47,589 bases of DNA from a virus. Taxonomy: Duplodnaviria > Heunggongvirae > Uroviricota > Caudoviricetes. The notes under the pieces are model-generated. The model saw only the letters and a list, made by a program, of their open reading frames with translations. It was not told the DNA's origin and did no database searches. The stretch is from IMG/VR virus record IMGVR_UViG_2706794673_000013; one strand, 5' to 3'. The position numbers and the translations under genes are program-made. Of this stretch, positions 1,553 through 18,193 are shown piece after piece (position 1 is the stretch's first letter; every line of letters starts with the position of its first letter).

Positions 1553-1741
1553 TCACGAGGACTGAAGTTTCTCGCAATTAAAATTTATCAGTTTTACTTT
1601 CTGCTCTCTGGAAACGCCTGCTTCTTTTTTACCTGAGAGCATTTTTTCGCATTCTGATTTCGTTAGTTTAGATTTTGAATATCTTGTCCAGTTAGTAGGA
1701 GTGCCACCTTCCTTTTCAATAGTGGCGGTAATTTTATACAT
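1553..1741 (-). CDS. Small hypothetical protein (YdaC-position)
   Basis: 62-aa ORF starting MYKITATIEKEGG; its ATG overlaps the TAA that would end full-length ralR (ATGTATAA arrangement). Confidence 0.5.
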   Translation of the reverse strand: MYKITATIEKEGGTPTNWTRYSKSKLTKSECEKMLSGKKEAGVSREQKVKLINFNCEKLQSS

Positions 1742-1928
1742 GAACACCTCCATTATTATTTCCAGTGGTTCGTTTATTTCATCGTTCGAGTGCTTCTTTT
1801 TCACTTCCACCATAACCGGTTCGGGATTCGCATCCGTTACACTTCGCTCGGTAATATCCTGAAATGGCTTTCACCGTTACTGATGGACAACCACAAAATG
1901 GACATGGTTTAACATTGTCATATCTCAT
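1734..1928 (-). pseudogene. ralR: ralR/lar-like restriction alleviation gene interrupted by an in-frame TGA (codon 50)
   Basis: Minus-strand translation MRYDNVKPCPFCGCPSVTVKAISGYYRAKCNGCESRTGYGGSEKEALER then TGA at 1779-1781, after which the same frame continues NKRTTGNNNGGVHV to TAA at 1734-1736; Cys-rich zinc-ribbon-like N-terminus. Confidence 0.5.
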
Positions 1929-1983
1929 AATTTTTCTCATAAAAATATTTCAAGTTGGCGGTGCATTACACCGCCAGGCTGAA

Positions 1984-17603: not shown

Positions 17604-18193
17604 GGCTGGTTTATTGTATGCCAAATGATTATTAAAAAGGTTGTGTTAATAACAAGATCCGAAATAATATGCCTGCATATTTTTATCTTGCTTATATTCT
17701 GCATATTGTGCATAGCAGGCTCATCCCTGCAATCAAAACTGTATGATGAGTATTTTTTGTTTTCCTTTTTTCCAGTCATCTGATGATGACCTGCTTCTTT
17801 TTAATCCGGATCGACATCAGTTTTTTAAGATAATTCCTGCGAGTTATATGCATAAATGCCACAAACTCCGCATTTTATGTGGTTGGGAGTTGCCGGGCGC
17901 GCAGTGAGTTTGCTAAGAAAACTCCTGCATGGTGAATCCCCCTGTGCGGTGGGGTGATACCATTAACCTTTTCTGTCGCCGACAGGTATCACGAACATTT
18001 TGTTCACCGGGAGGCACCCGGCACCATGCACTTCAATAGATTCTCTCCACATTATGGATATTCTTTCAGAATATCCCACGCAGACTTTGTGTAAATGTTA
18101 ACAAATGTGCGTTTTATTTGATCTGATTCGCTGTTTGAGCGTCCAAAACAACGGTATATATAATCCTTTACTATATGACATATGTGAGGAAAA

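Follow-up and report, generated by a model that had tools for sequence, protein, structure and literature searches.

The ralR (lar) gene in the stretch of prophage DNA analysed here (47,589 nt, hereafter the window) is interrupted by an in-frame TGA, which raises the question of whether this codon is a sequencing error, an inactivating nonsense mutation or the end of a shorter, functional protein. A preliminary description made from the sequence had reported that the minus-strand ralR frame meets a TGA after EALER and then stays open for 14 further codons, up to a TAA overlapping the ATG of the next gene. Translation confirmed this arrangement, and the coordinates matched to the base: window:1734-1940 on the minus strand translates to MRKIMRYDNVKPCPFCGCPSVTVKAISGYYRAKCNGCESRTGYGGSEKEALER, a stop, NKRTTGNNNGGVHV and a second stop, with the TGA at 1781-1779 (Table 1). 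The K-12-type start (MRYDNV) is the ATG at 1928-1926, the altered base in codon 50 is the A at 1779, and the truncated product keeps the four-cysteine zinc ribbon (CPFC...CNGC). The version of the protein that begins at the optional upstream ATG is annotated in Escherichia phage vB_EcoS-673R7 (URC10275.1). The original TAA of ralR (1736-1734) lies within the start of rcbA, which encodes a DUF1187 protein. The rcbA ATG is located at 1741-1739, and its overlap with the full-length ralR frame is 8 nt (ATGTATAA), as in K-12. The orphaned 3' end of ralR contains the rcbA Shine-Dalgarno sequence GGAGGTG (1751-1745), 3 nt before the rcbA ATG.

Table 1. Features at and around the interrupted ralR frame, in window coordinates.
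Feature	Position	Strand	Evidence or remark
rcbA (ydaC), DUF1187 protein, 62 aa	1553..1741	-	Pfam PF06688, 132 bits; WP_001302840.1 in identical genomes
ralA antitoxin sRNA, full length, antisense to rcbA	1557..1735	+	Rfam RF02694; ralA at the homologous K-12 position
Orphaned ralR 3' end, 14 open codons (NKRTTGNNNGGVHV) and original TAA	1734..1778	-	Translation
Truncated ralR frame, 49 codons (MRYDNV...EALER) and premature TGA	1779..1928	-	Translation, ORF list
Premature TGA stop, ralR codon 50	1779..1781	-	TGG (Trp) in K-12 and all other alleles examined; alignments, allele counts
Synonymous Arg49 difference, CGA here, AGA in K-12	1784..1784	-	CGA also occurs with TGG elsewhere
RalA-pairing site in ralR mRNA, 16 nt, AAGTGAAAAAGAAGCA, CDS nt 123-138	1791..1806	-	Unchanged, identical to K-12
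Optional in-frame upstream ATG (MRKI-), giving a 53-aa product	1929..1940	-	ORF list; chosen by some annotators

Read from position 1, the window encodes intR, xisR, rcbA, ralR, recT and recE. As a whole (1-47589) it is a near full-length Rac-type prophage that extends from the integrase through the tail fibres and carries head, tail and lysis genes, kilR, sieB and ydaT, with trkG as cargo. Its first 25 kb matched the calf strain NCTC10444 best (100.0% identity over 98% of the query). Pseudogene fragments (ynaK, tolA-like) are annotated in the best-matching genome of the window, and Rfam gave a hit to the sRNA family STnc100 (RF02076) at 17897-18083 (+), with 86.6 bits against a gathering score of 47. 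In Escherichia coli K-12 MG1655, the block around ralR forms the left end of the cryptic prophage Rac and comprises ralR (b1348, 195 nt, 64 aa), rcbA (b1347) and the antisense sRNA ralA (b4714). Locus and synteny are the same (recE-recT-ralR-rcbA-xisR-intR at ttcA), although K-12 Rac is a 23-kb remnant, in contrast to the near full-length prophage here with its head and tail genes. The window has the orthologous order recT-ralR-rcbA-xisR-intR, and in genomes 100.0% identical to it the block lies next to ttcA. The 701 nt around the site had matches in 1,928 of 5,426 complete E. coli genomes. Identity over these 701 nt was 100% in at least 40 of them, where recT, ralR and a DUF1187 protein are annotated. 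Strain E2865 has the gene order recE-recT-ralR-DUF1187-xisR-intR-ttcA, and RefSeq lists its ralR as a 150-nt CDS (49 aa, WP_001443846.1) without a pseudogene flag.

An alignment over 500 nt revealed four differences between the window and K-12 in total: one T fewer in a T-run upstream of ralR, the synonymous change of codon 49 from AGA to CGA (1784), the change of codon 50 from TGG to TGA (1779), and an rcbA that ends in TGA where K-12 has AGA (1555). K-12 thus reads GAA AGA TGG AAT (R49 W50) where the window reads GAA CGA TGA AAT. Apart from positions 1784 and 1779, the ralR coding sequence is that of K-12, the orphaned 3' stretch included. The preliminary description had expected a Trp codon (TGG) at the position of the stop, as in a 64-aa K-12 RalR, and the alignment with K-12 ralR bore this out, since the reference codon is TGG and not TGA. 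Residues 1-49 of K-12 RalR are 100% identical to the window product, which lacks residues 50-64. The T-run (1941-1945, minus strand) counts 5 T here against the 6 T of K-12; it is situated just upstream of the start region of ralR and adjoins the alternative ATG (MRKI-). As for rcbA, the window shares its TGA stop (1553-1555, minus strand) and a product of 62 aa with all the non-K-12 alleles examined, whereas K-12 has AGA and continues to 69 aa, which makes K-12 the outlier for this gene. The variable base at 1555 is 2 nt upstream of the annotated 5' end of RalA (1557).

Haplotypes were counted as exact 80-nt allele-specific megablast matches in the 5,426 complete E. coli genomes, a non-random collection whose counts are not population frequencies. 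The window haplotype (CGA TGA) was found in 310 of these genomes and the K-12 haplotype (AGA TGG) in 1,109. Neither of the two intermediates, AGA TGA and CGA TGG, had an exact 80-nt match in any of the 5,426 genomes, while a GGC ... CGA TGG haplotype was exact in 121. By these exact-match counts from a non-random collection, the TGA allele is present in roughly one sixth of ralR-carrying E. coli genomes. Several of the genomes with the TGA allele (O26, O103 and other STEC) had a second ralR-like place elsewhere in the chromosome. The window haplotype was also exact in three phage records, which are 100% identical to the window across 701 nt, and in one metagenome contig; the 49-aa protein WP_001443846.1 occurred on at least 1,000 contigs in the protein collection. 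A sequencing or assembly error that hides a true TGG, one of the options of the preliminary description, has nothing in its favour beyond the prior that single-base errors happen. Codon 50 lies outside any homopolymer, and the haplotype recurs in hundreds of complete assemblies that were made independently, by different laboratories and from different hosts and serotypes, as well as in phage and metagenome records. An error is therefore excluded for practical purposes, its residual probability being negligible. The TGA allele is a common natural allele that has already been catalogued.

The direction of the change could be read from the divergent alleles. In the alignment, the divergent E. coli alleles (O157:H7 and strains 146, LWY24, SCU-172, AF3 and ERL03-1416) all had AGA TGG, and the RalR homologues of Salmonella and Citrobacter kept the Trp at position 50. 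Because every divergent allele retains TGG or Trp, TGG is ancestral and TGA derived. A degenerate-pattern scan of metagenome contigs returned 48 contigs with AGA-TGG, eight with CGA-TGG and one with CGA-TGA. Of the eight CGA-TGG contigs, one (L023) shares its 80-nt background with the window. The remaining ones carry ralR alleles of other lambdoid prophages, whose haplotype is the one that was exact in 121 complete genomes; this background has one further synonymous difference, GGC for GGT. A single double-mutation event (AGA to CGA and TGG to TGA, 5 nt apart) was first suspected, as both single-change haplotypes were absent from the counts, and was dropped on account of the CGA-TGG combination in the eight metagenome contigs and 121 complete genomes. 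These same occurrences indicate that CGA is an older synonymous polymorphism outside the lesion, and since CGA pre-existed, the lesion amounts to one G-to-A transition. We propose that this transition, which turned codon 50 from TGG into TGA, took place in an allele already bearing the synonymous CGA at codon 49, and that the TGA allele would then have spread among ralR-carrying E. coli. Intact CGA-TGG alleles of other lambdoid prophages (E. coli O145 RM9872; metagenome loci L023 and L024) share the CGA at codon 49 and are near-identical to the window around the site, but keep TGG and encode the full 64 aa. They likely represent the immediate ancestor of the window allele.

The truncated product is still recognized as a member of the Lar family (Pfam PF14354, TIGR03655, PHROG 599), with which it shares a CPFC...CxxC zinc ribbon and the helix after it; its scores exceed the family cut-offs. 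Against Pfam PF14354 (Lar_restr_allev; cut-off 28.6), the 49-aa product reached 39 bits and the 64-aa form 53.5. The profile was matched over positions 2-58 by the 64-aa protein and over 2-52 by the 49-aa product, so that the last 6 positions are lost. The 49-aa product was barely above the cut-off of TIGR03655 (40.3 against 39.6; 64-aa form: 55.3) and passed that of the NCBIfam RalR equivalog NF007260 with 126.9 bits (cut-off 113). An exhaustive HMMER search found 909 relatives of RalR, and conservation was assessed in an alignment of 60 single-domain Lar representatives, one per 50%-identity cluster. C9, P10, C12, C30 and C33 were invariant in 60/60 relatives and are all present in the window product. 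W50, N51 and R53 were likewise invariant in 60/60 distant Lar-family proteins. All 60 thus have the C-terminal W-N-x-R motif at the end of the helix, in contrast to the window product, in which the motif falls after the TGA. None of the 60 aligned distant single-domain members ends ahead of the W; the sole products ending there were those of the window allele and close variants in one 90%-identity cluster. Many distant relatives consist of 2-6 tandem Lar domains per polypeptide (P0052, P0057, P0060 and P0073), for example a protein of 322 aa with 4 matched stretches and one of 364 aa with 6. Most matched stretches in these tandem proteins reach W-N-x-R (query positions 52-55).

The position of the stop in the protein was examined in an AlphaFold2 model of a 92%-identical 64-aa homologue, rather than of the window sequence itself, which had moderate confidence (mean pLDDT 77.8). 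The model comprises strands at 17-22 and 25-30, a single helix at 43-53 and a tail that is disordered. By this model, the stop falls inside the only helix and would remove its last turn, with 7 of the 11 helix residues kept. A sequence search of the PDB found no solved structure of the family, the matches being chance-level ones to an unrelated chitin-binding protein alone, and a Foldseek search against the PDB gave nothing below E = 0.1, with generic zinc ribbons (ELOF1, eIF2-beta, C11) as the only matches. In published mutagenesis, changes at RalR residues 14, 37, 39, 49, 51 and 52 lowered toxicity, and purified RalR K52Q had no DNA cleavage or DNase activity (Guo et al. 2014, PMC4041452). 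N51 and K52 lie beyond the stop codon of the window allele. Translation would stop after residue 49, which would remove W-N-x-R together with the disordered tail. We therefore consider it probable, with good confidence, that the TGA allele is a genuine, heritable loss-of-function nonsense allele of ralR, a reading to which the family-wide conservation, the structure model and the published mutants of neighbouring residues all point. The 49-aa product most likely lacks the toxin/DNase activity of RalR, and any Lar-type activity is probably lost as well.

Two of the options in the preliminary description, an inactivating nonsense mutation and a truncated 49-aa variant, turned out to be one and the same thing, that is, a real nonsense allele whose product is annotated in RefSeq as a 49-aa RalR. 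Inactivation is favoured by the conservation and the published mutagenesis, and it is loss of activity as predicted from these that the reading claims. The label of an anti-restriction gene held up only in part, since RalR is now described above all as the toxic half of a type I toxin-antitoxin pair, RalR/RalA, and not in terms of anti-restriction alone. The original description of lar as a restriction-alleviation gene is reportedly that of King and Murray in 1995. In the older literature, Ral of phage lambda is a functional analogue of Lar, though not a member of the Lar family; it alleviates EcoKI restriction and enhances modification, and has 24% identity (PMC4041452). A 2025 review of restriction-modification biology mentions neither Lar nor RalR.

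With respect to the toxin-antitoxin pair, the genomic position, RalA and the pairing site are all present in the window, and the complete toxin frame is not. The RalA match to Rfam RF02694 reached 225.1 bits (gathering score 170) and covered the whole model (positions 1-179 of 179). Guo et al. (2014, PMC4041452) defined the 16-nt pairing site in the ralR mRNA; a script found an 11-nt perfect complement to it in RalA, and both the sRNA and the site are those of K-12. A disturbance of RalA pairing by the lesion was considered and rejected, as the nearest change lies 7 nt beyond the downstream end of the 16-nt site. RalA most likely remains as an orphan antitoxin in the TGA allele, judging from the intact sRNA sequence. 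The truncation also removes the stop/start overlap between ralR and rcbA. Since rcbA has its own strong Shine-Dalgarno sequence (GGAGGTG), the loss of this overlap should have little effect on rcbA.

Further features were observed in the region between recT and rcbA. A perfect 7-bp GC-rich hairpin (GGCGGTG-TAATG-CACCGCC; 1957-1975, minus strand) lies between recT and ralR, after the recT stop, and a T-run follows it after about 12 nt. Even divergent alleles with a differing loop have kept the stem, and the hairpin was not called in the terminator scan. Lying ahead of ralR, it may serve for attenuation or for RNA stability. Some rare alleles in E. coli code for fusions of RalR with RcbA (P0012 and P0015). 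The fusion joint of P0012 is located at a GSEKEA/GKKEA repeat, and the 11-nt repeat AAAAAGAAGCA at window 1801-1791 has a second copy inside rcbA, which suggests that this fusion is a deletion between two direct copies of the RalA-pairing repeat. In a further variant (P0005, strain F2_81), the C-terminus of RalR is scrambled after T54. The fusions and the scrambled variant indicate that ralR has been disrupted independently in several ways.

The retained part of the protein leaves room for residual or altered activity, as it includes the zinc ribbon together with 7 of the 11 residues of the helix, and the product scores above the Pfam and NCBIfam RalR cut-offs. The 49-aa protein might accordingly be a functional short isoform that has lost toxicity and acts, for example, in ribbon-mediated restriction alleviation or in partner binding. 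The four-cysteine ribbon with most of the helix, the scores above the family cut-offs, and the abundance of the allele, which occurs in near-complete prophages and deposited phage genomes, would all fit such an isoform. However, W-N-x-R is as invariant as the zinc ligands throughout the family, multi-domain members included, no distant single-domain member among the 60 ends before the W, and point mutations at 49, 51 and 52 already cost the protein its toxicity (Guo et al. 2014, PMC4041452). These observations make a functional short isoform unlikely.

Alternatively, the allele could be attenuated rather than null. UGA is the leakiest stop codon in E. coli and is misread by tRNA-Trp, and a UGA followed by A is a relatively leaky context. 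Here the UGA replaces a Trp codon and is followed by A, so that low-level near-cognate decoding by tRNA-Trp would yield exactly the 64-aa wild-type protein. All 310 exact matches preserve the 14 codons beyond the TGA as well as the original stop, and the RalA antitoxin is kept. However, the intact codons are uninformative, because there is very little diversity in general (the K-12 haplotype is shared unchanged by 1,109 genomes) and the same codons also hold the ribosome-binding site and start of rcbA. The retention of RalA can be explained without a toxin, since the sRNA lies antisense to rcbA. No stimulatory structure follows the TGA, and for a gene that is poorly expressed in the first place, basal readthrough of about 0.1-1% would probably have little effect. 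We regard leaky reading of the UGA as very unlikely, although it is the only non-trivial reading left. If it were true, the prophage would retain, besides an intact RalA, a toxin made in strongly reduced amounts, and the leakiness of the stop codon would set the toxin dose, which would vary across strains with different RF2 alleles. Programmed recoding by selenocysteine insertion or frameshifting can appeal to nothing but the in-frame TGA and the open codons beyond it. No SECIS-like hairpin was found downstream of the UGA, where the 81-nt fold (-6.2 kcal/mol, z-score +0.96) was weaker than that of shuffled sequence, and CGA UGA A contains no slippery sequence. The position is moreover an invariant Trp, rather than Cys or Sec, in all relatives, and the ancestral allele has TGG. 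Recoding was rejected on the lack of a hairpin and a slippery site, and its probability is vanishingly small.

The ralR TGA is most likely an ordinary, widespread and already catalogued polymorphism of a prophage accessory gene, with a predicted loss of function, and matters little beyond annotation. RefSeq names the 49-aa product 'endodeoxyribonuclease toxin RalR', with no pseudogene flag; PGAP assigns this name, rather than calling a pseudogene, because the product passes the equivalog cut-off of NF007260. Surveys that score RalR/RalA as an intact system in strains with the TGA allele, among them many O26, O111 and O103 STEC, probably overcount it. Since the allele occurs in near-complete prophages and deposited phage genomes, full-length RalR/Lar appears to be dispensable for Rac-type prophages. 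The TGA allele would also be a ready-made natural control for re-testing the disputed biochemical function of RalR.
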